Source: Nitrospirota bacterium (GTDB lineage: Bacteria > Nitrospirota > Nitrospiria > JACQBZ01). From it: a DNA stretch of 64,000 nucleotides. The stretch covers positions 13,678 through 77,677 of the forward strand of contig JACQFA010000039.1 in assembly GCA_016200255.1 (NCBI GenBank), in the 5' to 3' direction. The notes beneath the pieces are model-generated. The model saw nothing but the letters and a program-made list of their open reading frames with translations. It made no database searches and was not told where the DNA came from. Each line of letters opens with the position of its first letter. The stretch's first letter is position 1. The position numbers and the translations under genes were made by a program. Positions 4,977-58,072 of this stretch are shown here, piece by piece.

Positions 4977-6950
4977 ATGATATCGATTCAAGAGATCTCA
5001 AAACGTTTCGGCGGCCGCACGCTGTTCCGCGAGGCCTCGCTCCGCATCGGCATCGAGGATCGCATGGCATTGGTCGGGCCGAACGGCGCCGGAAAAACGA
5101 CGCTGATCGAGATGATTGCCGGCCGGGTGTCGCCCGACAGCGGGACAATCGCGATCAACAAAAAAGCCGTGATCGGCTATCTGACTCAGGAGCTGGAGGC
5201 CCATCAGGGCAAAACCGTTTTGGACGAGGTGTTGTCGGGCGGCGCGGACGTCTCGTCCATCGAGCATCATCTGCGTCTTCTCGAAGAGGAGATCGCGACG
5301 GCCCCGCCTGAAACGGCCGAGGAGCTGCTGGCCCATTACGGCGAGCTCCAGGCGAAGTACGAACACCTCGGCGGCTATTCGCGCGAGGCCCGCGCACGGG
5401 AGGTTCTTTTCGGCCTCGGCTTCAAGGAAAAACATCTCTCGCGGCCGATGGAGGATCTTTCGGGCGGATGGCGGATGCGGGCCGCGCTGGCCCGGCTGCT
5501 ACTGTCCGGGCCGGATGTTTTGCTTTTGGACGAACCGACCAACCATCTTGATCTGGAATCGGTCGTCTGGCTCGAGACCTTCCTGTCCGACTACGCCGGG
5601 GCGATTCTGTTGATCTCCCATGACCGGAATTTCATGAACCGGCTTGCCACTCGCGTCGTCGAGATCGACCGGCAGCAACTGATCTCCTACACGGGAAATT
5701 ACGACCGGTTCGTCATCGCCAAGGCCGAGGCGCAGGAAATTCTTGAGTCGACCGCCAAAAACCAGCAGAAAAAGATCGACCAGACACAGGCCTTCATCGA
5801 CCGGTTCCGGGCCCAGGCCACGAAGGCCCGCCAGGTCCAGAGCCGGATCAAGATGCTGGACAAGATGGAAAAAGTCGATACGGGCCTTCAGCAAAAACGG
5901 GTCCGGTTCTCGTTCCCGGAACCGCCCCGCTCCGGCGAATCCGTGATCCGTTTGATCGAGATGGACAAATCCTACGACGACAACCCGATCTACCGCGGAC
6001 TGAATGTCGAACTCCGCCGCGGCGAGCGGGTCGCGCTGGTCGGGCCCAACGGGGCAGGGAAATCGACGCTGCTCAAACTACTGGCCGGCGTACTGCCGTT
6101 TGAGAAAGGCGAGCGGAAGCTGGGTCATAACGTGACACAGGCCTATTACGCGCAGCATCAGCTCGATCTTTTAAGCCCGGACAACACCGTTCTGGATGAA
6201 ATCATGCTGGCCGCGCCGATGGAAGAACAGTCCTTCCTCCGAGCCATTCTCGGCCGGTTTCTGTTTTCGGGCGACGACGCGAAAAAGAAGGTGGCCGTTC
6301 TCTCCGGCGGCGAGAAGAGCCGTCTCGCGCTGGCCAAGATGCTGATCCGTCCGGCGAACCTTCTCCTGATGGACGAACCGACGAACCATCTCGACATCCC
6401 GTCCCGCGACGTCCTCGAAGAGGCGCTCAACGGTTATTCCGGAACGCTTTGCTTCATCACGCATGACCGTCATTTCATCCGGTCCGTGGCGAACAGGATC
6501 ATCGATGTCCGGAACGGCGAGGCGACGCCCTACGCAGGCGACTACGATTATTACCTTTATAAGAAGAAGGCGATGGCCAATGGGATGGCTGCGGCTCTGG
6601 GCGAGCGGCCGGCGCAGGACGGCCCCCCGCCAACGGTTGATCCAAAATCCCAACCGGCAAAGATCCGGAAGACCAGGGAGCAAAAGCGGGCCGAGGCCGA
6701 GGCGCGCAATCGTCTGTACCGTGAAAAAAATCCGTTAAAGGACAAACTGTCCGGGATCGAGTCGGAGATTGACGAGGCGGAGAAAGTGTTTCAGGACCTT
6801 ACGACCGCTCTGGCTGATCCGGAATTGTACCGGGACAAGAAACGGTTTTTTGAAATGATGACGGCCCACACACAGGCCAAGCGCAAGGTGGAGGAACTCA
6901 CGGCCGAGTGGGAACGGCTGTCGGCCGAGGCGGAAAAAGAGAAGTCATAA
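4977..6950 (+). CDS. ABC-F family ATPase (Uup/YheS-like; tandem ABC domains plus C-terminal coiled coil)
   Basis: Two Walker A motifs (GPNGAGKTT and GPNGAGKST) and two LSGG signatures (LSGGWRMR and LSGGEKSRL). No transmembrane domain. Lys/Glu-rich C-terminal tail. Confidence 0.9.
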
Positions 6951-7322
6951 TCTTCTAAAAAGCGCAACAAGATCGCTGAAGCCGGACGCCTTCAGACGGC
7001 CTTCCGTCATCAGCCGGACGGCCTCTTCCTTGATCGCCGCCCGTTTCGGGTCCTTCGATCCTGTCTTCTCATGCCCGGCCGCGATCCGGAGCGCGTCGTT
7101 CAAATCTTTTTCGAGCTTGTCCTTCACAATCGCATTTTTTTCAAGCCGCGGCAGAAGCGAAGACCAGATAAGCCGGAGTTGTTCGGAAAACTGGTCCGGC
7201 GTGAACTGGTCCACCGCACTCTCCCCGGCGGCCGGCTGAAGCGACTTCCATAACAGGGTATAGAACCGCGTGAGTTCCGCGGCCAGATCCAAAAAAATCT
7301 TTTCCTTGCCCGTCTCGCTCAT
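6945..7322 (-). CDS. Hypothetical protein (125 aa)
   Basis: ORF immediately downstream of the transketolase subunit gene, coupled on the minus strand. No recognisable domain. Confidence 0.4.
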
Positions 7323-8246
7323 TTAACAGACCGTCTCGATCGCCTCGACGATCGCCTTCGCGGTAAGGCCGTATCGTTCGAACAACTGGGCCGGCATTCC
7401 CGACTCGGCATAGGTATTTTTCAAGCCCACGAACTCCATCGGGACAGGATGGTTCTGGACAACGACTTGGGCCACGCGGCTTCCCAATCCGCCATCAATC
7501 AGATGTTCCTCGGCCGTCACGATCGCGCCGGTCTCCCGGGCCGCCGCAATGACGGCCGCCTCGTCCAGCGGCTTGACGGTATGCATGTCGATCACGCGGA
7601 CATCGATCCCCTTCTCGACGCAGAGCTCGGCCGCCTCCAGCGCCTCCCAGACCATCATCCCGATCGCGATCACGGTCACGTCCTTGCCGGGCCGCAGGAG
7701 TTTGGCCCGTCCGATCTCAAACGACTCTCCCGGCGAATAGATCACCGGCGTATTCGGCCGGCTGGTCCGGATAAAGACCGGGCCCTGATATTCCGCGGCC
7801 CGTTTCACGAGCGCGCGCGCGGCGACTTCATCCGCCGGAACGAGCACCGTGAATTTCGGGAGCGAGCAGGCCAGCGCGATATCCTCCACGGCCATCTGAG
7901 ACGCGCCGTCCTGGCCGAGGCTGATCCCGCTGTGCGAGCCGCACAACTTGACGTTCAGGTGTGGGTTCGCGACCGACATCCGCAGCTGGTCGTAGGTCTT
8001 GCACATGAGGAAGGCCGAGAAGCTTGAGGCGAACGGAATCTTTCCGCAGGAGGCAAAGCCGGCCGCGGCTGAAACGAGGTTGGCCTCGGCGATGCCGAAA
8101 TTGAAAAACCGGTCCGGAAACTCCTTGGCGAACATCCGGCTCTTGGTCGATCCAGAAACGTCGCCGTCCAAGACCACAACGTTGGGATTTTCCTTCCCGA
8201 GCTCGGCCAGCGCAAGCCCGTAGGCATCCCGGGTCGCCAGCCCCAT
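7323..8246 (-). CDS. Transketolase, C-terminal (pyrimidine-binding) subunit of a split transketolase
   Basis: MGLATRDAYGLALAELGKENPNVVVLDGDVSGSTK...FNFGIAEANLVSAAAGFA...VKPLD. The likely start is at MGLATRD, preceded by GGGAGGG. No N-terminal subunit gene is adjacent in this window. Confidence 0.85.
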   Translation of the reverse strand: MGLATRDAYGLALAELGKENPNVVVLDGDVSGSTKSRMFAKEFPDRFFNFGIAEANLVSAAAGFASCGKIPFASSFSAFLMCKTYDQLRMSVANPHLNVKLCGSHSGISLGQDGASQMAVEDIALACSLPKFTVLVPADEVAARALVKRAAEYQGPVFIRTSRPNTPVIYSPGESFEIGRAKLLRPGKDVTVIAIGMMVWEALEAAELCVEKGIDVRVIDMHTVKPLDEAAVIAAARETGAIVTAEEHLIDGGLGSRVAQVVVQNHPVPMEFVGLKNTYAESGMPAQLFERYGLTAKAIVEAIETVC

Positions 8247-8420
8247 CTTTTTTTCGCGCGTCGTCACAGAGAAACCCTCCCATGAATTTCTTATCGAACA
8301 TGAACTGTCCCGATCATAATCGTGCGCCATTACGATGTCAAGTCATCTCCGGCCCGGGCCTTGACAAATAAAACCGCAACTTGTAACCTCTAATAGAAGA
8401 ACGTAGTATGGGGGATTCCT

Positions 8421-42918: not shown

Positions 42919-43031
42919 CGCGCGGACCGTCCGCACCTGTCGGTGACCGCCGACACCCGGCTGCGCAGATGCATACTTGATTCTTCCTCCCCATCGGGAT
43001 CATAATCTCCTTGGGTAAGGAGAACCTGACC

Positions 43032-44771
43032 GTGTCTGTGATCATCCGGGTGCTGGCCGTGCTGTTGTTGTTGAACCTGGCGAGCGTGTTTCCGCCACTG
43101 GCCTACGCAGAAGAAGAAACGTCCGACCCCTACGGAACGGTGCGGCTTTCCCGCATCAGCCTCATCGAGGGGGAGGTACTCCTTCAGCGGGGCGATGATG
43201 AAGAGTGGGTGGCGGCCTCCGTCAACATGCCGCTTCGCCCTCACGATAAACTCTGGGCGACCGACGACGCTCGTGCCGAAATCCAGTTTGACGACGGGAC
43301 CGCGGTTCGCCTTGCCGAAAATTCCAATCTGGACCTCGTAAGCCTGGAGCCGGACTGGATCCATCTCCAGCTCACATTGGGCGTGGCCAGTTTCGCGGCC
43401 CGGGCCTCTTTCCGCGCGGGCGCGCGCCAGCCCTTTCTCGAGATCGACACCCCGCAGGCCACGGCCCAGGTCACTCGTTCGACGGCGTTTCGGGTGGATG
43501 TGGCGGAGGACGGTTCAACCGTCATCACGGTCCGTGACGGTGAGGTGGAACTGAGCCGCGATGAGGAGCCGATCATGATCGCCGCCGATCAACGCGTCGC
43601 GATCGAGGGAGGCGACTCCCCGGACTATCTATTGGAAGCGGCCGAGCCGCCGGATGACTGGGACCGATGGAATAAAGATCGCGATACCCAACGGGCCCGG
43701 GCCGCGGACCATGAGCATCTCCCCTCCGGTACCGAGATGGGGGTGACGGAGTTGAATACCTACGGCAACTGGAATCAGGTCCAGACCTACGGCTGGGTTT
43801 GGATCCCCCAAGTGACCGCGGGTTGGACTCCCTATCATATCGGCCGATGGGTCTGGATGGAGCCGTGGGGCTGGACCTGGGTCTCCTACGAACCATGGGG
43901 TTGGCTCCCCTATCACTATGGCCGGTGGGTCATGGTCGGAGGCAGGGGATGGGTCTGGGTGCCGGGTCCGACTCTTGGAATTTGGACGCCAGGCTGTGTT
44001 CGATTTTTTTATGGGCCGAACTGGGTGGGCTGGGTGCCGCTCGGACCGGGCGAGGTCTACTATTACTATCCCGGCGCTTCCGTGAATATCGATATCAACC
44101 TCGTCAACTATCCTGTCCCGGGGGCGGCGATCGTGATGTCCCGGCGTCGCTTCGTCACGGGCCTGCCGGAGGAAGAAAGGTTTATTCCGCCCAAAGATCC
44201 GATTCGGGCCGGGCGGGTGGCGGTCGGTCCGCCGCCGGTCGTGCCGACACGCGCCAGCCTGCATCCCGCGCCCGAGACAGCGGTCCCGGCGGATCGGCTT
44301 CCGCCCCAAACGATCCATCGCCCGGTGGTCTATACCCGCACCCCGCCGGCTCCGCCGCCCCTCTTCGAGAACCGGGTAAAGGAAATTCAGGGCGTCGTCA
44401 CGCAAGGCCGTCCCCCCGCCGCGCCCTCGCTTCCGGAGAAAGGTGTACCGGGTGCCGAAGAGCGTCGCGCCGCAAGCGGGAAAATCCGCAAAGACATCAC
44501 GGTCAGGAAAATGATCGCACCCTCTACGCTCTCGACCTTTCCAAACCGGACGCCGCGCCCGCCGGAGGAGCGCGCCGCGCCGAGTCATGAAGCCAAGAAA
44601 AGGCAACCCTCTCCTCCCAAGAACGTTAAGTTGGCGAGGACACCTTCGGAACCCTCCGCTCCGCAAACATTGGAGGGACGAACACAACAAGGCCGGCCCC
44701 TCTATCGGAAGCCGCCATCCAACCCCGCCCCCGCGGTTGTTCCTCCCCCCCAAGGCGACGGATCGCACTAA
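43032..44771 (+). CDS. FecR-domain secreted protein with a Trp-rich repeat region and a Pro-rich C-terminal tail
   Basis: An N-terminal signal peptide, then FecR-like VRLSRISLIEGEVLLQRGDDEEW...AEIQFDDGTAVRLAENS. The middle reads WVWIPQVTAGWTPYHIGRWVWMEPWGWTWVSYEPWGWLPYHYGRWV and the C-terminal 200 aa are Pro/Ala-rich. The start was chosen at the GTG after an AAGGAG RBS; the track ORF begins at a TTG at 43011. Confidence 0.65.
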   Translation: MSVIIRVLAVLLLLNLASVFPPLAYAEEETSDPYGTVRLSRISLIEGEVLLQRGDDEEWVAASVNMPLRPHDKLWATDDARAEIQFDDGTAVRLAENSNLDLVSLEPDWIHLQLTLGVASFAARASFRAGARQPFLEIDTPQATAQVTRSTAFRVDVAEDGSTVITVRDGEVELSRDEEPIMIAADQRVAIEGGDSPDYLLEAAEPPDDWDRWNKDRDTQRARAADHEHLPSGTEMGVTELNTYGNWNQVQTYGWVWIPQVTAGWTPYHIGRWVWMEPWGWTWVSYEPWGWLPYHYGRWVMVGGRGWVWVPGPTLGIWTPGCVRFFYGPNWVGWVPLGPGEVYYYYPGASVNIDINLVNYPVPGAAIVMSRRRFVTGLPEEERFIPPKDPIRAGRVAVGPPPVVPTRASLHPAPETAVPADRLPPQTIHRPVVYTRTPPAPPPLFENRVKEIQGVVTQGRPPAAPSLPEKGVPGAEERRAASGKIRKDITVRKMIAPSTLSTFPNRTPRPPEERAAPSHEAKKRQPSPPKNVKLARTPSEPSAPQTLEGRTQQGRPLYRKPPSNPAPAVVPPPQGDGSH

Positions 44772-46287: not shown

Positions 46288-46365
46288 AGAGTCAAAAATG
46301 AACCGTATCGGGTTTAAGTAGAGAAATAGCTAACAGGGTTTCCGATGTACACGGGAGGCCTTTGC

Positions 46366-47340
46366 ATGAACTACAAAGCTAAATTGACTAAAGGACTTCG
46401 TAGTGCAGGGTTGCTGGGCTGGTTGCTTGCCTTGGGATTATTGTATGGCTCTGGTGGGGAAAGTGCTGGTGGTAGTAGCGGTGCCACACCGCAGATCTAC
46501 GTGGCAGACGTTTTCAACCACCGGATCGTGCGGATCAATGACATGACCGGTGCGGGCTGGACCACTCTCGGCACCGAAGGCAACGGGGCCAACCAGTTTC
46601 GCAATCCTGACGGCATTTTTGTAGATGCGGCCGGGAAGATCTACGTGGCAGACTCTTTTAACAACCGGATCGTGCGGGTCGATGACATGACCGGTGCGGG
46701 CTGGACTACATTCGGCACCGTTGGCGCTGGGACCAATCAGTTTTCCAAGCCAACTGGCATCTTTGTCGACACAGCCGGGAAGATCTATGTGACAGACTTT
46801 GTCAGAATCGTGCGGGTCGATGACATGACCGGCACGGGCTGGACTACATTCGGCACCGTTGGCGCTGGGACCAACCAGTTTCATAATCCTGGCGGCATTT
46901 TTGTAGATGCGGCCGGGAAGATCTACGTGGCAGACTCTTTTAACAACCGGATCGTGCGGGTCGATGACATGACCGGCGCGGGTTGGACTACATTTGGTGC
47001 CTCCGGCAATAGGTCCAACCAGCTTAGCGGTCCGGAGGGCATCTTTGTGGATGCAGCCGGGAAGATCTACGTGGCAGACCCCGACAACCACCGCATTGTA
47101 CGGATGAATGACATGACCGGCGCGGGTTGGACCACTCTCGGCACCCCTGGCAGCGGGACAAACCAATTTAGATACCCGTTTGGCATTTCTATAGACACGG
47201 CCGGGAAGATCTACGTGGCAGATGAAAGCAACCGTATTGTGCGGATGAATGACATGACCGGTGCGGGTTGGATCACACTCGGCACCCCTGGCAGCGTGAC
47301 AAATCAATTTCACGTTGCAAGGAACATCTTTATCCGATAG
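46366..47340 (+). CDS. NHL-repeat (six-bladed beta-propeller) protein with signal peptide
   Basis: Repeats of ...GKIYVADSFNNRIVRVDDMTGAGWTTFGT.G.G.NQF..P.GIFVD.A...; N-terminal hydrophobic segment LLGWLLALGLL. One repeat is shortened (KIYVTDFVRIVRVDD). Confidence 0.75.
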   Translation: MNYKAKLTKGLRSAGLLGWLLALGLLYGSGGESAGGSSGATPQIYVADVFNHRIVRINDMTGAGWTTLGTEGNGANQFRNPDGIFVDAAGKIYVADSFNNRIVRVDDMTGAGWTTFGTVGAGTNQFSKPTGIFVDTAGKIYVTDFVRIVRVDDMTGTGWTTFGTVGAGTNQFHNPGGIFVDAAGKIYVADSFNNRIVRVDDMTGAGWTTFGASGNRSNQLSGPEGIFVDAAGKIYVADPDNHRIVRMNDMTGAGWTTLGTPGSGTNQFRYPFGISIDTAGKIYVADESNRIVRMNDMTGAGWITLGTPGSVTNQFHVARNIFIR

Positions 47341-47935: not shown

Positions 47936-48364
47936 TCAAGGCGTCCCTTCCGAGCCATTTTGAGAAGGTTGTTGAACCTCTGCACATTCTAGTGAGGCGT
48001 AAACTGGATCGGGATCTAAGTAGTAAGCCCCACCACTCACCAAATCAATAACCGTTCCAACAAAAAACCCCACAAAAAGGAATGGGATGAGATTGGCGAA
48101 CACGATAGGTGAATTATAGCTAAATACCAATACCTGCTTTCGTTCACATCCTGTTTTGTTAAATTCAACTAATGCGCTTTTTCCCCGAGGCAGATCCCTT
48201 TTAACAGGCGTTTTTCCAATCGCTGCGCCATCAACGCTTACTTCTGCTCCTTCGGGATGGGAATTAAAAAGGACTTCTTGTTTGCTGCCATGGATAAGCG
48301 TTCCGTAAGCACATCCATTTAAAATCATTGCCACAAGTACTATATAGGCAATTAATCTTTTCAT
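47936..48364 (-). CDS. PEGA-domain lipoprotein
   Basis: Lipobox MKRLIAYIVLVAMILNGC, and a PEGA-like VSVDGAAIGKTPVKRDLPRGKSALVEFNKTGCERKQVLVF. The locus is lower in GC (~45%). Confidence 0.55.
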   Translation of the reverse strand: MKRLIAYIVLVAMILNGCAYGTLIHGSKQEVLFNSHPEGAEVSVDGAAIGKTPVKRDLPRGKSALVEFNKTGCERKQVLVFSYNSPIVFANLIPFLFVGFFVGTVIDLVSGGAYYLDPDPVYASLECAEVQQPSQNGSEGTP

Positions 48365-48407
48365 GTCTTCACCCACTAAATGCAAATACTTGCTCGCTGA
48401 ACGTAAC

Positions 48408-50630
48408 CTAAAGAAGAAGTAGTCCGGCCTCACGGACGGCCTTCCACTCCCTGCTTTTTAAAAATGTTCCAAACGATTTTTTCGACTTGGCAGGGCAGCG
48501 CCGGGCCGCCTCCGCGAGTTTCAAGTAAGCGGCGCCTTTTCGGCCGCGCGGCTGAGACTCTTTTAAGATCGACTGAAGCCACTCGGCGATTAACGGCTCG
48601 ACTCGGATTTTGCGATCCTCTCCCCGGCCGGGGAGGAATAGAGAGGACCCCTTTGAAATCGACGGAACGCCGCCGAGCCAGACCAGCCTCCGTTCCAGAT
48701 CGTCTCGATAAGAAGGCGCGGCCGCCAGCGCGGTCGTGATGAGGTTCCGCGAGACCTTCGGTTTGGAAAGGGGGGAATCAAAAAAAGTCCGGACGTCGAC
48801 GTCTAATTTGACCCCGTGCATGTAGTTGTAGATCGCCTTGGCGAGTCCTGGCCCGAATCGTTCCGGATCGCTTCCGGTTGGATCGACATGGGTCAGATCG
48901 TTGTTCGCGAAGCGGCCGGGGGCGGGGCCGGTGATCTCGATTCCGTACGCGCCGGGGTTGAGACCGACGGGGCTGTGCCGTGTGGCCGTGAACCGATGCC
49001 AGAAGGCGGAATGGAGTATCCCGGCTTCAAAGAGTTGCCGCACCCGCTCCAGACTTGCTATCGTCTCCACGGCCGTCTCGGTCGGAAATCCGTACATCAG
49101 GTAGGCATGGACCATGATCCCGGCTTCGGTAAAAGCATGCGCGACGCGTGCAACCTGCGCGACGGTGATCCCTTTTTCCATCAGGGCGAGAAGACGGTCG
49201 GAGGCGACCTCCATCCCGCCGGTGACGGCGATGCAGCCGGAGGCGGCCAGCAGACGGCAGAGGTCGGGCGTGAAGGCCTCTTCGAACCGGATATTCCCCC
49301 ACCAGGAAATCGCGCGGCCCCGGTCCAGCAGCTCCAGCGCCAGATCGGCCAGGCGCGATGGCGGCGCGGCCTCGTCCACAAAATGAAACCCCGTCTCTCC
49401 GGTCTCTTCGATCAGGATGTCGATCCGGTCGGCCAATAGCGTCGCCGGCGTCGGCTCGTAGCGCTGGATATAATCGAGCCCGATGTCGCAGAAGGCGCAT
49501 TTTTTCCAGTAACAGCCGTGCGCCACGGTCAGCTTGTTCCAGCGGCCATCCGACCAGAGCCGATGCATCGGGTTGAGCATCTCGACCAGCGACAGGTACG
49601 ATCGAAGCGGAAGGCCGCGATAGGTGGGCGTCCCGGTCTCGGCAAAGGGAACTTCCTGCTCCGGCGCGGTATTGATGTACTGAACCTTGCCATCGCGTCG
49701 CAGGAAGGTCCGGCACAGCCGCCCCATCTCCGGTTCATCGAAGGATTCCAAGAGGGCGAGGAGGGGCCGCTCTCCGGCGTCGAGTGTGACATAGTCCACA
49801 TAATCGAAGAGACGCGGCTCGGCGAGTTCACGCAGCTCGGTATTGACGTAGCCTCCTCCGAGCGCGATTTTGACGCCGGGATACCGCCGGCGGATGAAAG
49901 CGGCCGAGCGGAGCGCACCGTAAAGATTTCCGGGGAAGGGAATCGTGATCCCGACGAGATGAGGCTTGACCGTTTTCATCTGTCGATCCAGGACTTCTTC
50001 CAACATCCGGTCGATCAGGCCGGGCGGATCTTTAAGCGCCTGGTCGAGCGGATCGAAGGAGGTCGCGGAGGCCGCAAGACGCTCGGCATAACGGCTGAGC
50101 CCGAAGCGGGGATCGACCGTCGCCTGGATGAGGTCGGCCAGATCGTCCAGATATAGGGAGGCGAGATGTTTGGCCCGGTCGGTCAGGCCGAGGCTTCCGA
50201 AGGCCCAAAGATCGTCGTCCAGTTTTGAAAAACGGGGCCCTTCCGGCAAAAACCGGCGACGGCTTATCTGGGTCGCCCAGGAAGGATCATTTCCCTGGAG
50301 AAACCGGATCACCGGATCGATCGTGTCGAGGTAACGATCCCTCAATGAGACGGCCCGCTCAATCACCGGGTCGGACGTCCGAGTCCGCGCCCGGCTCGAA
50401 TCAATCGCCTCAAAAAGGCGGGCCAGCCCCGGACCGGAAAAAAGCGCCAGAAACGTTTCGATTCCCAGATCGGCCTGGAAGACTGTCTCGGTTTTGGATT
50501 GAAGATAACCGGTCAGATAGGCCGTCGCGGGATACGGGGTGTTCAACTGGGTGAAGGGAGGGGTCAGGAGAAGGAGGCGCGGCATGACGGAACGCGACGG
50601 AAAAGCGTCAGTAACCGCCGGGGCTGCCAT
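48408..50630 (-). CDS. B12-binding-domain radical SAM protein (740 aa)
   Basis: N-terminal B12-binding-like (...VKIALGGGYVNTELREL...) and the radical SAM CxxxCxxC motif VAHGCYWKKCAFC; large C-terminal region of unknown function. Confidence 0.7.
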   Translation of the reverse strand: MAAPAVTDAFPSRSVMPRLLLLTPPFTQLNTPYPATAYLTGYLQSKTETVFQADLGIETFLALFSGPGLARLFEAIDSSRARTRTSDPVIERAVSLRDRYLDTIDPVIRFLQGNDPSWATQISRRRFLPEGPRFSKLDDDLWAFGSLGLTDRAKHLASLYLDDLADLIQATVDPRFGLSRYAERLAASATSFDPLDQALKDPPGLIDRMLEEVLDRQMKTVKPHLVGITIPFPGNLYGALRSAAFIRRRYPGVKIALGGGYVNTELRELAEPRLFDYVDYVTLDAGERPLLALLESFDEPEMGRLCRTFLRRDGKVQYINTAPEQEVPFAETGTPTYRGLPLRSYLSLVEMLNPMHRLWSDGRWNKLTVAHGCYWKKCAFCDIGLDYIQRYEPTPATLLADRIDILIEETGETGFHFVDEAAPPSRLADLALELLDRGRAISWWGNIRFEEAFTPDLCRLLAASGCIAVTGGMEVASDRLLALMEKGITVAQVARVAHAFTEAGIMVHAYLMYGFPTETAVETIASLERVRQLFEAGILHSAFWHRFTATRHSPVGLNPGAYGIEITGPAPGRFANNDLTHVDPTGSDPERFGPGLAKAIYNYMHGVKLDVDVRTFFDSPLSKPKVSRNLITTALAAAPSYRDDLERRLVWLGGVPSISKGSSLFLPGRGEDRKIRVEPLIAEWLQSILKESQPRGRKGAAYLKLAEAARRCPAKSKKSFGTFLKSREWKAVREAGLLLL

Positions 50631-50802
50631 GCCGGTCTTCCTCGCGCTTCAGGTCCTGCATCCCCTTGTCGGAGTCCTGTTTGATCTTGTCCTGATCCGG
50701 CCGCTCGGGCGGCGACGAGGCGCAGCCGACAAGTCCCAACGTCAGCGCCGTGGCAAGAACAGCCGGGAACAGGATCCCCTTTTTGAATAAATCGTTCTTC
50801 AT
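50608..50802 (-). CDS. Small lipoprotein (64 aa)
   Basis: Lipobox LTLGLVGCASS; overlaps the upstream gene's 3' end. Confidence 0.45.
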   Translation of the reverse strand: MKNDLFKKGILFPAVLATALTLGLVGCASSPPERPDQDKIKQDSDKGMQDLKREEDRHGSPGGY

Positions 50803-51863
50803 TTTTCTTCCTTTCCATAGATGAATTCGGCGATCTGGCGGCCGACTTCCTCCGTCACTTCCTGCCCGGCCGCGCGAAGCGCGCGGGCCTCGGCCTCGGA
50901 AGCGGTCAGATGCCCTTCGCGCCCCTGCCGCGTCATGCTCCCGATCACCTGCTGCGTCGCCCGGTCGGTGAGATCAATGGCCGCCGTCCATCGGACGAAC
51001 CGCGTCGGGGGCGATCCGCCCGCGGGCATCTGGACCGGCTCAAAGGTCACGGCGCCTTTGACCGTCAAATCGGGCTGCAGATCGGGCGCGGCGGAACCGG
51101 CCGGCACGACGGGCAGCCCCTGCCGGTTCAATCCCTCGACGATCGCGGCCCGCATCTCATTGTTGTGCGGACCGCCGACCTCGACCACGATCTTGAAATT
51201 TTGGGCCAGGAACTGGCGCAGGTCCTGACTGATCACGGCCAGGCTGACCATGCTCTCGGAGCCTTTTCCGGTGGGACTGACGACCCGGAGCTCCGTGTTA
51301 TAGGCGTCCCGCAGCAATAAATTCTCGACCGTCGAATGAAACGCCCTCACGGTTTTCAGTTTGTCTCCGGACTGCCGGGCCTGCTTCAGCCGCTCTTCGA
51401 TTTGAAGATCCAGCGAGGTGATCCGGTCTCTCAAGGACGAGGCGGCATGCTGCCGGTCCATCACGGCCAGCGCATAGTAGACCGCCTTGGACTCGTCCAT
51501 CCATCTCTCCGCGATGCTCACGTTCTCCAACACTTTTTTGGTCGAGACCTGCGTCACCTGCTCGATGTTGATCTGCCGGCTGTCCTCCGATCGTACCTTG
51601 GAATCCGACTGGAGATATTTTTCCCATTCCTGCGTCTTGGAATTGATCTCGGCCGTGAAGATTTTTGAAACCGCGGCGTAGGCCCGGTCCTCGGCCGCCT
51701 GACGGGTGTCCGCATAGCCGACGCCGGTCAGGTACAGCGCTTCCGGATATTTTTTGCTCGATCCGTTGACCCAATCCGGAGAACCTGCCGCGATAACCGG
51801 GGAAGAAACGCCGATCCATACGATCAGTCCGGCAGCCACGATGCTTAAAACACTTTTTTTCAT
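50799..51863 (-). CDS. LPP20-domain periplasmic protein (signal peptide)
   Basis: MKKSVLSIVAAGLIVWIGVSSPVIAAG...YLTGVGYADTRQAAEDRAYAAVSKIFTAEI LPP20-like N-terminal domain. Confidence 0.55.
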   Translation of the reverse strand: MKKSVLSIVAAGLIVWIGVSSPVIAAGSPDWVNGSSKKYPEALYLTGVGYADTRQAAEDRAYAAVSKIFTAEINSKTQEWEKYLQSDSKVRSEDSRQINIEQVTQVSTKKVLENVSIAERWMDESKAVYYALAVMDRQHAASSLRDRITSLDLQIEERLKQARQSGDKLKTVRAFHSTVENLLLRDAYNTELRVVSPTGKGSESMVSLAVISQDLRQFLAQNFKIVVEVGGPHNNEMRAAIVEGLNRQGLPVVPAGSAAPDLQPDLTVKGAVTFEPVQMPAGGSPPTRFVRWTAAIDLTDRATQQVIGSMTRQGREGHLTASEAEARALRAAGQEVTEEVGRQIAEFIYGKEEK

Positions 51864-51887
51864 CCTGTCTCCACCATCCAATTTGTT

Positions 51888-53246
51888 TTATTGCGGCCCA
51901 AGGACCCGGTACCCCAAAAACCGTTTCTCTCCGGCCTTCAGCGTCATGGCCGGAAATGTTTTCCGTTCGATCAAGCCGTCCGTGGTATCGTAATACTCGA
52001 CGGCAACCGTGTACGTTCCCGGAGGAACGGCCAGCCGGGCCAATTGAATCTGCCCCGGCAGCGTGCGCCAGCTCCGCTTGTCCGTTTGCTCCGTAGCCAC
52101 GGCGGCCACGTTGGCCAGGAGACCGGCCACCGGCCCGCCCTTCTTTTCAGCCTCCCGCGTCGCCTGATACTTGACCACGGCCCTCGCAATCGACTTGGCC
52201 GTGATCCGGGCGATGCGGTCCTCCAGGTTTTTCTTGGCAATCGCCGTGACGTCCTCGGCCAAAAAGGTCCGTTGGGAAACGGCCCCGCCCGAACCGGCCG
52301 CCGGGATCAGATGCACCTCGGCCGTCTTGACCTTGTTGGACCGCGGCACGAACTTCGGAAGGGCCACGCGAAGAACATACACGCCGCCCTTCTTTTCCGG
52401 GATCGGCGCCTCGATGAAAAAATCTTCCTTGATCGGCGATCGGCCGGTATAACTGACGAAGACCAGTTCGCTCTGGCCTTTCAATTCCTTCTCGGTCGTC
52501 CAGCGCGCGCTCGGAAATTGCTTGAGGTAGTCCTGATGCTCTTCCTCCAGGTGGAGTGCCGCCGTTACCCGCAAGAGATCGGCCGGAAGCGTCGGCGGCA
52601 TCGGCGTGCCGTAGTTCTTTCGATAATCGCCGTAGGCTTCATAGGCCTTGCGATACGAGATAAAGGCGTCGTTCAGTTCGCCCTTCGCCTCGAACAGGAT
52701 CCCGCTCAGATACTGGGCCAACGCATCCTGTTTATAGACATTCTTTTTTTCATACTTGTCGTTAAACAGATTGAGTTTATGATCCACCTTTCGGGCCTCG
52801 ACCAGCGCCTCGTCCCATTGTCCGAGATAACCGTAGTTGAGCGCCGCGATCACGTTGATCATGACCTTTTCGAAATCCTCCCCTTCGTACGGCAGGGCAT
52901 TGTCGTTGGTCAGCATGGCGCCGGCCCCGGCCGCGACGCTCTGGGTGTAGAGTTCGTCGATCCGGTTCTCGGCCTGGGTCAGGGATTGATTGCTCTCGTT
53001 GTACTGCCCGGCCAGATGAAGCATCATGCCCCGATCGAAATCGTATAAGACGGCATTGCGGTCGCCGTAGTCGGACTGGTGCTTCACGATCACGGCGTCG
53101 GCCTCGGCGAACTGCTGCCGGGACTGGAGGTTGTCCACGAGGATGTAATGGTGCACACCCGGCCCGCAGCCCGACAGGACCAGCAAACCGACGAGGACAG
53201 GAATCGACAACCATGTTTGCATCACGCCCCGATGGATGGATGTCAT
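51888..53246 (-). CDS. Lipoprotein with TPR-like helical region (452 aa)
   Basis: Lipobox LVLSGCGP. The central region is helical-repeat-like with no family assignment. Confidence 0.5.
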   Translation of the reverse strand: MTSIHRGVMQTWLSIPVLVGLLVLSGCGPGVHHYILVDNLQSRQQFAEADAVIVKHQSDYGDRNAVLYDFDRGMMLHLAGQYNESNQSLTQAENRIDELYTQSVAAGAGAMLTNDNALPYEGEDFEKVMINVIAALNYGYLGQWDEALVEARKVDHKLNLFNDKYEKKNVYKQDALAQYLSGILFEAKGELNDAFISYRKAYEAYGDYRKNYGTPMPPTLPADLLRVTAALHLEEEHQDYLKQFPSARWTTEKELKGQSELVFVSYTGRSPIKEDFFIEAPIPEKKGGVYVLRVALPKFVPRSNKVKTAEVHLIPAAGSGGAVSQRTFLAEDVTAIAKKNLEDRIARITAKSIARAVVKYQATREAEKKGGPVAGLLANVAAVATEQTDKRSWRTLPGQIQLARLAVPPGTYTVAVEYYDTTDGLIERKTFPAMTLKAGEKRFLGYRVLGPQ

Positions 53247-53248
53247 GG

Positions 53249-53890
53249 TTAGAATCCGAAACGGCTCTTCTCGACCACCTTCTTGATTTTTTTCTGCCCG
53301 GCCCAGACCTTCAGGTTCTTCTCCATATCAAAGAACTCCAGGTCCACCTGGTAGTAAACAACCTTGGTCCCCTTGGACTCGTCCAGAATCGAATTGATCG
53401 TGCCCTTGAGCATGTAGTCGGCCCCGATCTCCTTGCCCAGGCCCTTGGCCGTTTCCTGGGATGACTGGGACTGTTGATCCTGCCGCTCCTCACGGACCTC
53501 GTCACGCTCGGACTTCGACGCCACGAACTGGACCCGGCCGTCGTTCGTCAGTTCGCGCTCCAGGTCCTTGGTAAAGGTCTGTACGTTGATATGTTCCGTA
53601 CTCCGGTTCATCACGGTCCCGACGATCACGGTCGGGGTCTTGCCGGAATGCTGCTTGCCGAATTTATCAAGCCAGGGACGGGACAGCACGTCCTTGATCA
53701 TCTCCTCGGCCACCATCCGGGAATCGGCGTCGTTCCACCGGCCCGACAGATCGATCGTCGTATCGGCTCCGACCCGCTCCACTTTCGTTGTCGCGCAACC
53801 CGCCGCCCCGACCAGCAACAGGATCAACAGGGTTCCGGTCAGCGACATCGGAATCATTTCAAAAACGTTTTTCAAAGACATTCGTCTCAT
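53249..53890 (-). CDS. LpoB-like lipoprotein (PBP-activator LpoB/COG3417 family)
   Basis: Lipobox LLVGAAGC. VIVGTVMNRSTEHINVQTFTKDLERELTNDGRVQFV...GADYMLKGTINSI...YQVDLEFFDMEKNLKVWAG matches the LpoB pattern LLVDSVNNRTNGSLNA...LRNALANNGKFTLV...GAHYVLYSSASGN. It is the same length as E. coli LpoB (213 aa). Confidence 0.6.
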   Translation of the reverse strand: MRRMSLKNVFEMIPMSLTGTLLILLLVGAAGCATTKVERVGADTTIDLSGRWNDADSRMVAEEMIKDVLSRPWLDKFGKQHSGKTPTVIVGTVMNRSTEHINVQTFTKDLERELTNDGRVQFVASKSERDEVREERQDQQSQSSQETAKGLGKEIGADYMLKGTINSILDESKGTKVVYYQVDLEFFDMEKNLKVWAGQKKIKKVVEKSRFGF

Positions 53891-53921
53891 CGGTTCTCTC
53901 CTTCATACATTAAAAAAATCC

Positions 53922-54923
53922 CTATCGAAATTTTCCCCGCATCTCTTTCATCAGGTCTTCCATTTCCTTCATCCGGTCCGCGATCAGCCGGTCCAGATCG
54001 TACGGACGTTTCTCGGTCAGAATCTGAACCGCCGGTTTTTCCTCTTGGGCCGGCTTCTTCGAACCAGACGGAGGACTCTTGGGCGCGGCTTCCGATTTTT
54101 GAACCGGCGTGACCGGTTTATCCACGGCCGGAGGAGGTGACGGAGCCGGCGCCGATGACACCGGCGGCTTTGTCGGTGATTCGTACGGAACGGCCACGCC
54201 CTGCGTCGCCAGCCACTGCCGGGCGACGCTGGATTTGACCGCAAAATTGATTGAAGTAATCGTCAGCCCGTCGGCCGCCTTCCGGGAGATCATCGTATTC
54301 ACGCCCACCATGGCCCCCCGCCCGTCCAGCAGAGGTCCGCCGGAATTGCCGCGGTTCAGGCTGGTCTCGGTCTGAAAAATATCCTTTCCCTTCACGCCGT
54401 TGAAATTCTCGATCTCGGCGCTGATCGTCCCCGTGGTCAGGGTCCAGAGCCCGCCGGTTTCCGGATGTCCGATCGCCACGACCGGATCCCCGATCGCGAC
54501 CTGATCGGGATCTCCCAGAGACACGACCGTCAGACCTGCCGGCGGATTTTCCATCCGAAGCAACGCCATGTCCAGGGCCGCATCGTAGCCCAGAAGCTTC
54601 GCCTCGACACGTCGGGTCAGGTCCTTGTCCATGTTGCCGGTCACACGGTCCGGTTTTAAAAACAGGCTGACATGGCGATACGGCCGGTTCGTTTCCTTGT
54701 TGATCACGACATGGGCGTTCGTAATCACCAGCCCGTCGGTCCGGATGATCGAGCCGGTCCCCCCGCTGCCCATGCGGCCGTCATCGCTGGCCAGTATCAG
54801 GACCACCCCCGGCCCGATGCTCTGATAGATCTCCTTCGGACTATTGGCCCATGCGGCAGTCGCACAAAACACGACGACCGCCAAAAACAGAAGGCCGGTT
54901 TCTATGCAAACGCTCCGCTTCAT
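53922..54923 (-). CDS. Trypsin-like (S1) serine protease, secreted, with a Pro-rich C-terminal tail
   Basis: Catalytic triad context TNAHVV...D...GNSGGPLLD; signal peptide; no PDZ domain. Confidence 0.8.
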   Translation of the reverse strand: MKRSVCIETGLLFLAVVVFCATAAWANSPKEIYQSIGPGVVLILASDDGRMGSGGTGSIIRTDGLVITNAHVVINKETNRPYRHVSLFLKPDRVTGNMDKDLTRRVEAKLLGYDAALDMALLRMENPPAGLTVVSLGDPDQVAIGDPVVAIGHPETGGLWTLTTGTISAEIENFNGVKGKDIFQTETSLNRGNSGGPLLDGRGAMVGVNTMISRKAADGLTITSINFAVKSSVARQWLATQGVAVPYESPTKPPVSSAPAPSPPPAVDKPVTPVQKSEAAPKSPPSGSKKPAQEEKPAVQILTEKRPYDLDRLIADRMKEMEDLMKEMRGKFR

Positions 54924-54944
54924 GACCCAGACTCCAACCGTGGA

Positions 54945-55538
54945 CTACTTCGCCCGCTTCTCTTCCTCGGCGGCAAGACCCTCGAATGATTTTTCGGCGT
55001 TCTTCTTCACATAATCCCGAACGGCCGAGTTCAGCTCCTTGATCTTGTCCAGGCTGTTTTTGAAACTCTCCAGATCGAGACGCGCCAGCGCAAAGAGCTC
55101 GCTGGTCGAAGGATCGGTCCAGTGATCAATGATCATCACGCCGTTCAAGGTCGCGGAGGAGAAGGTCTTGATCGCCTGTTCGATATACTGTTCCTCGCTC
55201 GTGGCCGACGCGCCCGTCACGGCCCCTCCGCCCGTCGTCGAGGCGGCGTAATCCTTCATGAGCGAAGCGGTGTAGGTTTCAAAGATCTTGGTGATCTCAG
55301 CCCGCGCGCGGTTTTCCGCAGCGGTCCGCGCCAGCGGCGGATTGCGGACGCCGATCACGGATCCGACGCCATAGAACACCTTGCTGCCCGAGTCCTTGAA
55401 CGCCCCGCTGCCCTTGGTCACCCATTCCGGCGGTTGAGCGCCGGCAGGCTGTTTGCCGGCACAGCCCGTCATTGAAACCGGCAGCAGCGCCGCCAGGATG
55501 ATTCCCAAAACCACAACCCTTGCATTCATTCGCTTCAT
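54945..55538 (-). CDS. LPP20/FlgP-family lipoprotein
   Basis: Lipobox VSMTGCAG; LPP20-like GVGSVIGVRNPPLARTAAENRARAEITKIFETY. Confidence 0.6.
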   Translation of the reverse strand: MKRMNARVVVLGIILAALLPVSMTGCAGKQPAGAQPPEWVTKGSGAFKDSGSKVFYGVGSVIGVRNPPLARTAAENRARAEITKIFETYTASLMKDYAASTTGGGAVTGASATSEEQYIEQAIKTFSSATLNGVMIIDHWTDPSTSELFALARLDLESFKNSLDKIKELNSAVRDYVKKNAEKSFEGLAAEEEKRAK

Positions 55539-55600
55539 GGCATCCTCCTCTTGATTTGAATAGCGTTGACCGAAATGAACGTCCTCCGTTCCGATGTCTT

Positions 55601-56347
55601 TCAGAAAATATAATTCACCGCCAGGATCGGGCCGCTGAACACATCCTTCTCCCTGAAACAGAGAAAACCGGTCTGGCCGCAGGAGACTTGATTCGCAGGA
55701 TAATCAATCCGTCGATAAGCGAATCCCGCCACCCCCACGAGCGGCCAGCGGATGCCGGCATAACTCAGTCCTCCCTCGATTGAAAAGCCCTGGATCAAGG
55801 CCAGATTCAAGTAACCGGCCCAGCGCGTGTCCGCCATGGGATGGTCAAGAAGGATCCCCGGACCGACACGGCCCAGTTCAACCGTCGTCGTACAACCCGT
55901 GCAACGGAGATCGGTCGTTTGCCCGTGTCGTAAATAACCCACGTAAGGACTCACCCCCCGCATGACCGTATAACCGACGGCGAGATTCACTTCCGTCAGA
56001 TCGACCTTCGACTTTTGAAGAAACAACGGATCCGAGAAGGAAGACGGCTGCTCTGAAATAGTGAGACTCACGGCCGCCGCCTCGGCGCCGACGAACCAAT
56101 GGTCATAGGAGGCATTCAGCGCCACCGCCGTCATCCAGTTTCCATCGGAAACGGGTGTTTCGATGCGGCGCGTTTCCGAGCCGTCCGTTTTTTCAATTTT
56201 TAACGTCCGTCTCAATGAGAAAAATTGTTCCTTGAGCCCCAGCGCAAACGTCAGTTCGCCCGCGGTCGCCGGCGGGATCGTCGCAGCGAGACCGACCGGC
56301 CCGATCAGAGCGATCAGAAAAACAGCGGCCCCGCCGAATCTCACCAT
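55601..56347 (-). CDS. Putative outer-membrane beta-barrel protein
   Basis: Signal peptide, alternating amphipathic beta-strand pattern, and a C-terminal aromatic terminus ...ILAVNYIF. Confidence 0.5.
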   Translation of the reverse strand: MVRFGGAAVFLIALIGPVGLAATIPPATAGELTFALGLKEQFFSLRRTLKIEKTDGSETRRIETPVSDGNWMTAVALNASYDHWFVGAEAAAVSLTISEQPSSFSDPLFLQKSKVDLTEVNLAVGYTVMRGVSPYVGYLRHGQTTDLRCTGCTTTVELGRVGPGILLDHPMADTRWAGYLNLALIQGFSIEGGLSYAGIRWPLVGVAGFAYRRIDYPANQVSCGQTGFLCFREKDVFSGPILAVNYIF

Positions 56348-56448: not shown

Positions 56449-57171
56449 TCACCGTGCCGGACGTTGACCGGGTTTCATGCGGCCCGATCCATCCCCTCGA
56501 TGGGCCCGACGGAGCATCTCCTCGCCTTTTTCGATAATCAACATCCGGCCGCTGTTCCGAACCACGCCGCGGCGGGTCAGATCGGCCAGGACCCGTGAGA
56601 CGGTTTCCCGCGAGGCGCCGACCATGTCGGCCAGTTCATGGTGCGTCGGCAGTCGGGTGATGATAAACCCGTCCTCCAGCGGCTTGCCGTGCAGCCGCGC
56701 CAGACGAAGCAGCATGCGCGCCACGCGCCCATAGACGTCCAGGAGCACCAGATCCTGAATCTTCTCATCCGCCCGGCGCAACCGCCGGCTCAACTCGATC
56801 AACATCTTGATCGCGATCTTCGGCTCGCGTTCGACCTGGTTCAAAAACGCGGATCGTTCCAGCACCAAAAGCTCCGTGGGCTCGACCGCGGTCACATGGG
56901 CCGAACGGGGTTCCTGATCCAGAAGCGCCATTTCGCCGAAGAAATCGCCCTGGCCCAGCATGTCCAGAATGATCTCGCGGCCGTCCTCGGATAGATGGAC
57001 CACCTTGGCCCGTCCCGAGACGATCATGAACATGGCCTCCCCCGGATCATCCTCCTGCAGGATGATTGCCCCCTTTGAATAGGCGCGGGTCTTGACCAGC
57101 CGGTAGAGAAGATCAATCTCGGCCGCTTCCAGATCGGCAAAGAGGGGGATCTTTTGAAGCAGATTTTTCAT
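56449..57171 (-). CDS. Crp/Fnr-family transcriptional regulator (cNMP-binding domain plus HTH)
   Basis: cNMP-binding domain (...ILQEDDPGEAMFMIVSGRAKV...) and C-terminal HTH RLPTHHELADMVGASRETVSRVL. The start was chosen at MKNLLQ; the upstream 67 codons of the track ORF are unlikely to be coding. Confidence 0.8.
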   Translation of the reverse strand: MKNLLQKIPLFADLEAAEIDLLYRLVKTRAYSKGAIILQEDDPGEAMFMIVSGRAKVVHLSEDGREIILDMLGQGDFFGEMALLDQEPRSAHVTAVEPTELLVLERSAFLNQVEREPKIAIKMLIELSRRLRRADEKIQDLVLLDVYGRVARMLLRLARLHGKPLEDGFIITRLPTHHELADMVGASRETVSRVLADLTRRGVVRNSGRMLIIEKGEEMLRRAHRGDGSGRMKPGQRPAR

Positions 57172-57352
57172 TTTTAAATTTCCGGCGCAAAGAGGGGGCC
57201 ATTCACTCTCGCTGACGGAAGCAGAACCGGTTTTTGATCTTTCAGAACTATAAGGGGTTTCCTTCCGATTGTCAAAGCAAATTTGTCCCGAAAAAGACCT
57301 TGCTAAGTTCCCGGGATTTTTGAGATAATGAGCCCGCTGATCGGAGAAAATA

Positions 57353-58072
57353 ATGGCCCGACTGGGAGTCAATATTGATCATATCGCCACGCTGCGGCAG
57401 GCCCGCGGCGGAGCCGAACCGGACCCGATCGCGGCCGCCGTGTTGGTGGAACTCGCTGGCGCGGACGGTATCGTGGTCCATCTCCGCGAAGACCGCCGCC
57501 ATATCAAGGACCGCGATCTGCATCTTCTGCGGGAGATGCTCCAGACCAAACTGGATTTAGAGATGGCCCCGGTGGAGGAAATCGTCAAGATCGCGCTGGA
57601 CGTCAAGCCCCACATGGTCACACTGGTACCGGAACGGCGCGAAGAGCTCACGACCGAGGGAGGACTGGACGTCGCCGGAAACCGGGAAGCGCTCCGCGGT
57701 ACGATCAACCTTCTCCATGACGCCGGTATCGCGGTCAGTCTTTTCATCGACTCGGATCTGGATCAGGTGAAGGCCTCGCACCGGATCGGCGCCGACTATA
57801 TCGAGATCCATACCGGCCGATACGTCAATGCCAAGCTGCTCAAGGAACAGGACGCCGAACTGGAGGCGATCCAGCAAACCGCCAAGATGGCCTACAAAGT
57901 CGGGATGGGCGTCAATGCCGGTCACGGGCTCAACTACCGAAACATCAAGCGCCTTCTCCCGATCCATGAAATTGTCGAGTACAATATCGGCCACAGCATC
58001 ATCTCGAGGGCCGTCATGGTCGGACTTCAACAGGCCGTACGGGAAATGAAAGACCTGTTGAACAAAGGTTGA
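57353..58072 (+). CDS. pdxJ: Pyridoxine 5'-phosphate synthase
   Basis: MARLGVNIDHIATLRQARGG.EPDP...HLREDRRHI is the PdxJ signature. Confidence 0.9.
   Translation: MARLGVNIDHIATLRQARGGAEPDPIAAAVLVELAGADGIVVHLREDRRHIKDRDLHLLREMLQTKLDLEMAPVEEIVKIALDVKPHMVTLVPERREELTTEGGLDVAGNREALRGTINLLHDAGIAVSLFIDSDLDQVKASHRIGADYIEIHTGRYVNAKLLKEQDAELEAIQQTAKMAYKVGMGVNAGHGLNYRNIKRLLPIHEIVEYNIGHSIISRAVMVGLQQAVREMKDLLNKG

Follow-up and report, generated by a model that had tools for sequence, protein, structure and literature searches.

A widespread COG3014/LpoB-domain envelope gene module in lineage-expanded form in a Nitrospirota bacterium

The DNA investigated here, referred to as the window, is a stretch of 64,000 nucleotides (nt) from contig JACQFA010000039.1 (assembly GCA_016200255.1) of a Nitrospirota bacterium. 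The original prediction, made from the letters alone, had placed seven consecutive genes for exported envelope proteins on the minus strand at positions 50608-56347. All seven open reading frames (ORFs) were found there, each with a lipobox or a signal peptide. Together they represent, in lineage-expanded form, an envelope module found in many bacterial phyla. The core of this module consists of an LpoB-like gene and a gene of the COG3014 family, to which usually a short and a long gene of the LPP20 family are added. Database entries with 100% identity to the window proteins belong to a Nitrospirae metagenome-assembled genome (MAG) with the locus tags HY283_05140 to HY283_05160.

Read along the minus strand, the cluster starts with the gene for a protein of 248 amino acids (aa), for which structure prediction gave a 10-stranded outer-membrane beta-barrel (55601-56347). 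It is followed by the genes for a short LPP20-family lipoprotein of 197 aa (54945-55538; Pfam LPP20 and lipobox), a secreted HtrA-like (S1) serine protease of 333 aa without PDZ domain (53922-54923; Trypsin_2) and an LpoB-domain lipoprotein of 213 aa with the lipid-carrying Cys32 and a short linker (53249-53890; PF13036). Next come the genes for a tetratricopeptide repeat (TPR) lipoprotein of 452 aa (51888-53246), assigned to COG3014 by named relatives and structure prediction, for a long LPP20-family protein of 360 aa with a signal peptide but no lipobox (50799-51881; Pfam LPP20) and for a lipoprotein of 64 aa (50608-50802; lipobox LVGC). The COG3014 gene is the anchor of the module. The LpoB-like gene and the two LPP20 genes are further core members, the protease is optional, and the barrel and the 64-aa lipoprotein are lineage-specific additions. 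The domain calls of the original prediction were borne out by Pfam for both LPP20 proteins, the LpoB domain and Trypsin_2, and by structure prediction for the TPR protein and the barrel. No Pfam family was assigned to the 452-, 248- and 64-aa proteins.

From the barrel gene to the 64-aa gene the intergenic gaps are 62, 21, 31, 2, 6 (or 24) and -4 nt, the start of the 64-aa gene overlapping the stop of the long LPP20 gene by 4 nt. For the long LPP20 gene the ATG at 51863, preceded by the Shine-Dalgarno sequence GGTGGAG, is the likelier start and gives a protein of 354 aa. A strong Shine-Dalgarno sequence (AGAGGAGG) is also present at the short LPP20 gene. The lipoboxes read from the translations are SMTGC (197 aa), GAAGC (213 aa), LSGC (452 aa) and LVGC (64 aa). 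Cleavable signal peptides without lipobox were recognized in the barrel (ATA|GE), the protease (AWA|NS) and the 360-aa protein (VIA|AG). Upstream of the barrel gene, the first of the cluster, a candidate for a sigma-70-like promoter lies on the minus strand at 56418-56390 (TCGACA-17-TATCAT, 10/12 matches plus a TG extension), proposed by its consensus match alone. Terminator-like matches were not in excess in the region, with 13 compared to 12.8 in shuffled sequence.

The spread of the module was examined by a genome scan for COG3014 with an alignment of 12 sequences. It yielded 80 loci, or 82 with locus L001 and the window added. Iterated hidden Markov models built from the window proteins were mapped onto every ORF of these loci. 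They span more than 12 phyla and were found in Nitrospirota, Desulfobacterota ('Deltaproteobacteria'), Bacteroidota, Ignavibacteriota, Gemmatimonadota, Planctomycetota, Elusimicrobiota, Omnitrophota, Spirochaetia, Poribacteria, SAR324 and other groups. The LpoB-like gene is located immediately upstream of the COG3014 gene and on the same strand in 78 of the 82 loci; of the remaining four, two are truncated where the contig stops. In 42 loci COG3014 has a long LPP20 gene as neighbour, mostly immediately downstream, and any LPP20 gene was detected near it in 44. The protease is part of the cluster in seven loci from two phyla and occupies two different positions. It lies between the short LPP20 and the LpoB-like gene in Nitrospirota (window, L003, L004 and L006) and in L068, and between the two LPP20 genes in L036 and L038. 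Barrel and 64-aa lipoprotein recur only in L002 and L003, which are close Nitrospirota relatives. Most homologs of three core proteins have a lipobox, namely 71 of 76 LpoB-like, 69 of 84 COG3014 and 36 of 40 short LPP20 proteins. Of the long LPP20 proteins 19 of 42 have one, whereas all seven proteases lack it. Other conserved neighbours did not emerge in the 82 loci. One large conserved-neighbour cluster was dismissed as an artefact, since it had arisen by chaining together response regulators and TPR proteins.

Because of this synteny the cluster is more than a chance assembly; the signal peptides themselves do not show that. The earlier claim that the genes belong together holds for the LpoB-like/COG3014 pair and, in about half of the loci, for LPP20, while barrel, protease and small lipoprotein are not part of the conserved core. 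An accidental adjacency of unrelated envelope genes would be favoured by two observations: barrel, small lipoprotein and the radical SAM and PEGA genes downstream of the cluster are not conserved with the core, and the protease subfamily can be unlinked from it. For the four core genes such an explanation is largely refuted by the synteny of the pair and by a four-gene order kept across phyla; moreover, the gaps measure only 2 to 62 nt and stop and start codons overlap. Chance can thus hardly account for the cluster. Among the individual loci, variants of the module were observed. L054 contains an ORF of 895 aa (5675-8362) in which a lipoprotein domain, propeller-like by eye, is fused to the COG3014 domain. 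Tandem genes are found in L025 (258-2800) with two copies of COG3014 and in L024 with two copies of the LpoB-like gene.

The 452-aa protein (51888-53246) showed 53-55% identity at 94-96% coverage to the NCBI 'COG3014 family protein' entries P0077 and P0082. A word-indexed search gave 756 homologs among 8000 candidates scored, and an exhaustive search 4548 homolog clusters at 50% identity. In the AlphaFold model, which is confident (predicted local distance difference test 92.9), the lipid-carrying Cys27 is followed by TPR-type helix pairs from residue 32 to 256. The C-terminal part is a beta-rich domain into which a long helix (333-385) is inserted. With a distance of only five residues between the lipid cysteine and the start of the TPR domain, this domain should sit at the outer membrane. 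The original prediction had called the protein reminiscent of LpoA. It is a COG3014 protein instead: no match to the LpoA family PF04348 (LppC) was obtained at E up to 0.1, and the model contains no linker. The likeness to LpoA is only that of one TPR lipoprotein to another. The homolog P0042 carries the Pfam accession PF27315, for which no match was obtained in the window protein or in 43 family members scanned. Possibly this accession already stands for the COG3014 family in a newer release of Pfam.

The 213-aa protein (53249-53890) matched PF13036 with 156 bits (8.2e-46) over profile positions 1-147 of 147. With the NCBIfam LpoB equivalog TIGR02722 it reached 105.4 bits and remained under the cutoff of 110.55 bits; the same model gave 218 bits for E. 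coli LpoB and 218.6 bits for LpoB of Aeromonas. The identity of the window protein is 18% to E. coli LpoB and, over the full mature length, 28% to the Aeromonas protein. E. coli LpoB has a proline-rich insertion of about 34 residues just after the lipid cysteine, which is absent in the window protein, in a second Nitrospirota protein and in that of Aeromonas. These three have a common C-terminal extension that E. coli LpoB lacks. The length of 213 aa for both the window and the E. coli protein, in which the original prediction had seen a match, is therefore a coincidence, in which one protein has the insertion and the other the extension, at 18% identity. Between Cys32 and D56 the window protein has 23 proline-free residues compared to about 57 proline-rich ones in E. 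coli. The family profile aligns from the cysteine onward in most of the 76 LpoB-like homologs.

For E. coli LpoB it was described that a disordered stretch of ~145 Å is needed to reach PBP1B, and the proline-rich insertion is this stretch (PMC6220978). Residues S157, A164, Y178, S180 and E201 contact PBP1B, and binding is abolished by E201R (PMC12279963). In the window protein Y178 is replaced by lysine (K162), E201 by leucine and S180 by threonine. A164 is kept, and the position of S157 falls into a poorly aligned low-complexity stretch. The window protein is a member of the LpoB domain family, but the evidence speaks against the same function as that of E. coli LpoB.

A comparison of the lpoB loci points in the same direction. 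In Aeromonas caviae (L085; NZ_AP026896.1, 3086840-3096009) tblastn revealed the gene order hinT-COG3014-YcfL-like-LpoB-thiK. The COG3014 protein of this locus has 28% identity to that of the window (E 9e-38). The locus of E. coli K-12 reads hinT-ycfL-lpoB-thiK and contains no COG3014 gene. Considering this locus and the synteny described above, COG3014 is the usual partner of the LpoB domain. The E. coli arrangement without it appears to be a derived special case. The Aeromonas record is filed as plasmid 'pKAM479_3', although with 4.9 Mb it is evidently a chromosome, and it is almost unannotated (18 features).

Regulation of a peptidoglycan synthase, which the original prediction had proposed as one possibility, would mean that the LpoB-like protein and the TPR lipoprotein, the latter as an analogue of LpoA or LpoP, stimulate a class A penicillin-binding protein (PBP) from the outer membrane. 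PBPs can be activated by TPR lipoproteins, and LpoP is a protein with such a domain. In P. aeruginosa LpoP is named as the outer-membrane activator of PBP1B (PMC7267771). The window and E. coli proteins have the LpoB Pfam domain, the attachment to the outer membrane as lipoproteins and an ancestral locus in common, the domain match is strong (8.2e-46), and TIGR02722 was missed narrowly. The Aeromonas ortholog passes this model and also accompanies a COG3014 gene. As an LpoB-type activator, however, the window protein is weakened as a candidate by its score below the TIGR02722 cutoff, by the missing linker and by the changed Y178 and E201. Where E. coli LpoB needs its ~145 Å stretch (PMC6220978), 23 proline-free residues are available, and in most homologs the profile already starts at the cysteine. 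Leucine stands at the position where E201R abolishes binding (PMC12279963). LpoB and the UB2H docking domain were reported as limited to enterobacteria (PMC3060616). E. coli itself has no COG3014 partner, and the COG3014 protein has neither a linker nor a match to the LpoA family in Pfam. For the Helicobacter pylori protein HP0018, discussed below, the altered cell shape of the mutant would agree with an effect on wall synthesis, but hydrolases and not PBPs were obtained by co-immunoprecipitation (PMC11394524). In general, we consider the activation of a PBP by the window proteins unlikely.

The protease (53922-54923) matched Trypsin_2 with 100.8 bits (1.5e-28). Its residues D118 and S194 align with the motifs DIALL and GNSGG of DegQ, which we take to hold the catalytic Asp and Ser of that enzyme, and H71 lies within TNAHVV. 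Judged by these residues, the active site of Asp, Ser and His is apparently intact. No PDZ family was matched in Pfam, and the scores with the NCBIfam models for HtrA, DegP, DegQ and DegS were all far under their cutoffs. The C-terminus consists of a linker rich in proline and lysine and a conserved helix with the motif LTEKxPYxLDxL...EMEDxMxEMRGK. This motif is common to the in-cluster orthologs of Nitrospirota (L003, L004, L006 and L084) and of MAGs labelled as Deltaproteobacteria (L036, L038 and L068). In the tail (53922-54100, minus strand) the conserved helix is amphipathic and acidic (…LTEKRPYDLDRLIADRMKEMEDLMKEMRGKFR) and the spacer before it, rich in proline and lysine, varies in length. 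It could be a putative docking tail for a TPR groove. The protease subfamily is large. Three distant members were examined, and one of them (L084) is located inside a cluster of the order LPP20-protease-LpoB-COG3014-LPP20. A strict linkage of protease and cluster was rejected, since the two other orthologs lie beside glycosyltransferase genes. Because some members of the subfamily are in the cluster and some are unlinked, the connection of the protease with the module is recurrent but optional.

With the Pfam family LPP20 (PF02169; cutoff 25.9 bits) 34.9 bits were obtained for the 197-aa protein and 44.4 bits for residues 35-142 of the 360-aa protein. The family profile of the short protein found no sequence match in the PDB. 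The long protein matched the PDB entry 4kzs, 'LPP20 lipofamily protein' (E 0.0036; E 6e-4 with the profile), which we take to be HP1454 of H. pylori. Full-length orthology to HP1454 was not established, as the similarity to 4kzs covers the N-terminal LPP20 domain only. Furthermore, the LpoB-like protein gave a weak match to FlgT_M in Pfam (8e-4), which is below the cutoff.

The original prediction had pointed to FlgP, a flagellar relative of the LPP20 proteins. FlgP, Lpp20 and FlgT have a common SHS2 fold, the FlgP disk of Campylobacter jejuni is bound by a lattice of the HtrA-like PflC, and ring formation in the LPP20/FlgP family was tied to a beta-hairpin insert (PMC12222027). By comparison, the two LPP20-family proteins and the LpoB-like protein with its FlgT_M match could form a ring, disk or lattice under the outer membrane for a flagellum or another surface organelle, in which the HtrA-like protein would be a lattice element like PflC. 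The LPP20 (SHS2) fold and an HtrA-family partner are indeed common to both systems. In H. pylori Lpp20 is HP1456, and HP1454, encoded in the same operon and with a first domain resembling Lpp20, binds FlgP and FapH as HP1456 does (two-hybrid, co-immunoprecipitation; PMC11756786). Yet deletion of HP1456 leaves motility and motor structure unchanged (PMC11756786). Among 20 window proteins scanned against Pfam no flagellar family was matched apart from the sub-threshold FlgT_M, nor did the 82 loci reveal any flagellar gene as a conserved neighbour. The module is also present in non-flagellated phyla; it occurs in Bacteroidota, to our knowledge a phylum without flagella. In addition, the window protease retains its active-site motifs, unlike PflC. 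A role of the FlgP type, or in a comparable organelle, is therefore improbable.

For the barrel (55601-56347) a signal peptide, a C-terminal aromatic residue and a closed, antiparallel, OpcA-like barrel of 10 strands were predicted. Its homologs are confined to a narrow Nitrospirota clade. In all 23 aligned homologs the cysteine pairs C149/C152 and C223/C230 are invariant. This suggests disulfides in loops, which are unusual for small outer-membrane barrels. The 64-aa lipoprotein (50608-50802) gave no family match with Pfam or NCBIfam, and homologs of 60 aa were detected at the same position only in L002 and L003.

Lipoproteins of the same types are known from Campylobacter. The C. jejuni genes cj0089, cj0090 and cj0091 are co-transcribed and code for lipoproteins, all with lipoboxes (PMC3100323). 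Cj0089 is a TPR lipoprotein of 453 aa with 27% identity to HP0018; Cj0091, a lipoprotein of 207 aa homologous to HP1457, was described with a 'collagen-binding SpaP' domain (PMC3100323). TPR and LpoB-type lipoproteins are thus present in nearly the sizes found in the window (452 and 213 aa). Unlike in the window, the gene order is reversed, Cj0090 lies between the two, and LPP20, protease and barrel are missing from the operon. Cj0090 is presumably YcfL-like, and COG3014 is presumably the family of Cj0089 and HP0018. A mutant of cj0091 adhered and colonised less well, and the protein is immunogenic (PMC3100323). These findings, together with article titles which indicate Lpp20, HP1454 and HP1457 in outer-membrane vesicles of H. 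pylori, and with the barrel gene at the head of the cluster, could mean that the window codes for surface-exposed or secreted lipoproteins for adhesion or for interaction with a host or the environment, exported or displayed by the barrel. The module, however, is common in host-free lineages of groundwater, sediment and the sea. The barrel is restricted to its narrow clade and with 10 strands is too small for a known lipoprotein exporter, and the conservation of the LpoB-like/COG3014 pair across phyla points to a housekeeping role in the envelope. Adhesion or surface display as the function of the cluster is thus highly unlikely.

For H. pylori, deletion of hp0018 resulted in chains of outer-membrane vesicles, altered shape and less helical cells, and HP0018 co-purified with AmiA and MltD (PMC11394524). 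HP0018 was reported as homolog of Cj0089 and HP1457 described as homolog of LpoB; in enterohepatic Helicobacter hp0018 and hp1457 are syntenic (PMC11394524). HP0018, HP1457, HP1456 and HP1454 represent the same four protein types as the core of the window. The assignment is drawn from family name, size, architecture and synteny. Differences are that in H. pylori the COG3014-type gene is unlinked from the other three and that protease and barrel are absent.

The closest working analogue is NlpI, a TPR lipoprotein of the outer membrane. It binds and scaffolds several hydrolases of peptidoglycan and passes MepS on to the protease Prc; its loss causes hypervesiculation (PMC7049810). Hypervesiculation and hydrolase binding match the hp0018 phenotype and the partners found by co-immunoprecipitation (PMC7049810, PMC11394524). 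The system of NlpI, Prc and MepS resembles the cluster by functional analogy only, in that a TPR lipoprotein of the outer membrane is combined with a periplasmic serine protease. A sequence relationship was not detectable, the window proteins gave no match to the NlpI family in NCBIfam or Pfam, and the COG3014 protein has an extra C-terminal beta-rich domain. Prc belongs to the S41 class. The window protease, unlike this tail-specific enzyme, is of the HtrA-like S1 type.

With slightly less than even confidence, we read the cluster as an outer-membrane-anchored periplasmic scaffold or adaptor for the remodelling of envelope and peptidoglycan, similar to NlpI and not to LpoB. The reading starts from what the sequences show: which genes are present, that their products carry export signals, that they are syntenic and that LpoB-specific features are missing. 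From this we infer that the proteins assemble physically, that they act like NlpI and what the protease does. The core proteins would come together at the outer membrane on its periplasmic side, where the TPR protein of the COG3014 family would be the hub for interactions with the LpoB-like protein and the LPP20 proteins. Such a complex may scaffold or restrain peptidoglycan-remodelling enzymes, by which outer membrane and cell wall would stay coordinated. In the lineages that have it, the PDZ-less protease, predicted to be active, would plausibly degrade clients or components in the manner of Prc with NlpI. The small OpcA-like barrel and the 64-aa lipoprotein may plausibly anchor or modulate the complex.

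Several observations weigh against this scaffold or adaptor. The connection of COG3014 with Cj0089 and HP0018 is one of family name, size, TPR lipoprotein nature and synteny, not of sequence alignment. The partners of HP0018 in co-immunoprecipitation were called only 'potential' by the authors (PMC11394524). Cj0089 fractionated with the inner membrane, and adhesion and colonisation are the only phenotype reported for Cj0091 (PMC3100323). Deletion of HP1456 had no phenotype that the assays applied could detect (PMC11756786). In about half of the loci no LPP20 gene lies within 7 kb, and most have no protease. Two of the three distant protease members (L082 and L083) are unlinked beside their glycosyltransferase genes and have nevertheless kept the tail motif.

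A more far-reaching idea is that LpoB-like, COG3014 and LPP20 proteins form an ancient, near pan-Gram-negative adaptor for hydrolases and vesiculation, a counterpart of NlpI and Prc, and that enterobacterial LpoB is a recent offshoot of it. We regard this as speculative and rather doubtful. If true, enterobacterial LpoB would have lost its COG3014 partner, gained the long linker and taken on the activation of PBP1B. The most self-contained form would then be that of Nitrospirota, which includes a protease and a barrel of its own.

The gene types and the linkage of the pair are known from the literature on Campylobacter and Helicobacter, and the COG3014 family was named by NCBI. The term 'COG3014' itself yielded almost nothing in the literature. 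As far as searched, it has not been described in how many phyla the four-gene module occurs, how it is related to the lpoB locus of E. coli, or that the tailed protease recurs in it. LpoB-domain proteins outside the enterobacteria are routinely labelled 'penicillin-binding protein activator LpoB', and the results caution against this transfer of annotation. Furthermore, the scattered observations on Cj0089-91, HP0018 and the Lpp20 operon are joined into one module. This gives a testable idea of the way in which outer membrane and wall remodelling are coordinated in diverse Gram-negative bacteria. The result for the window itself is modest: its envelope operon is real, conserved and uncharacterised and has additions specific to the lineage, but does not amount to a system of a new kind.

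The genes around the cluster were also inspected. On the minus strand a B12-binding radical SAM protein of 740 aa is encoded at 48408-50630 (Radical_SAM, 9.6e-9). The best NCBIfam model for it was a subfamily of the PhpK-type P-methyltransferases, with a score far under the cutoff. The annotated start of this gene overlaps the gene of the 64-aa lipoprotein by 23 nt. It is directly followed by the gene for a PEGA-domain lipoprotein (47936-48433, minus strand), for which the ATG at 48364 is the likely start (MKRLIAY...LNGC) and which has a hydrophobic C-terminal segment beyond the PEGA domain. The radical SAM gene was found near the module in only two of the 82 loci, and the PEGA gene is unique to the window among the loci compared. 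Both were rejected as module members, as they are not conserved with the core despite abutting it on the same strand.

Directly upstream of the cluster and on the same strand a regulator of the Crp/Fnr family is encoded (56449-57372; cNMP_binding and HTH_Crp_2). The N-terminal extension of about 65 aa in this ORF is probably spurious, with the real start near MKNLLQKIP. Crp-like neighbours were observed in six of the 82 loci. At a greater distance two exported proteins were noted on the plus strand. The first (46345-47340) is an NHL-repeat beta-propeller protein with a signal peptide and near-identical repeats of the type RIVRxxDMTGAGWTTxGTxG, opposite to which a long shadow ORF is located. 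The second (43011-44771) has 586 aa and combines FecR and DUF6600 domains with a long, proline-rich C-terminal tail.

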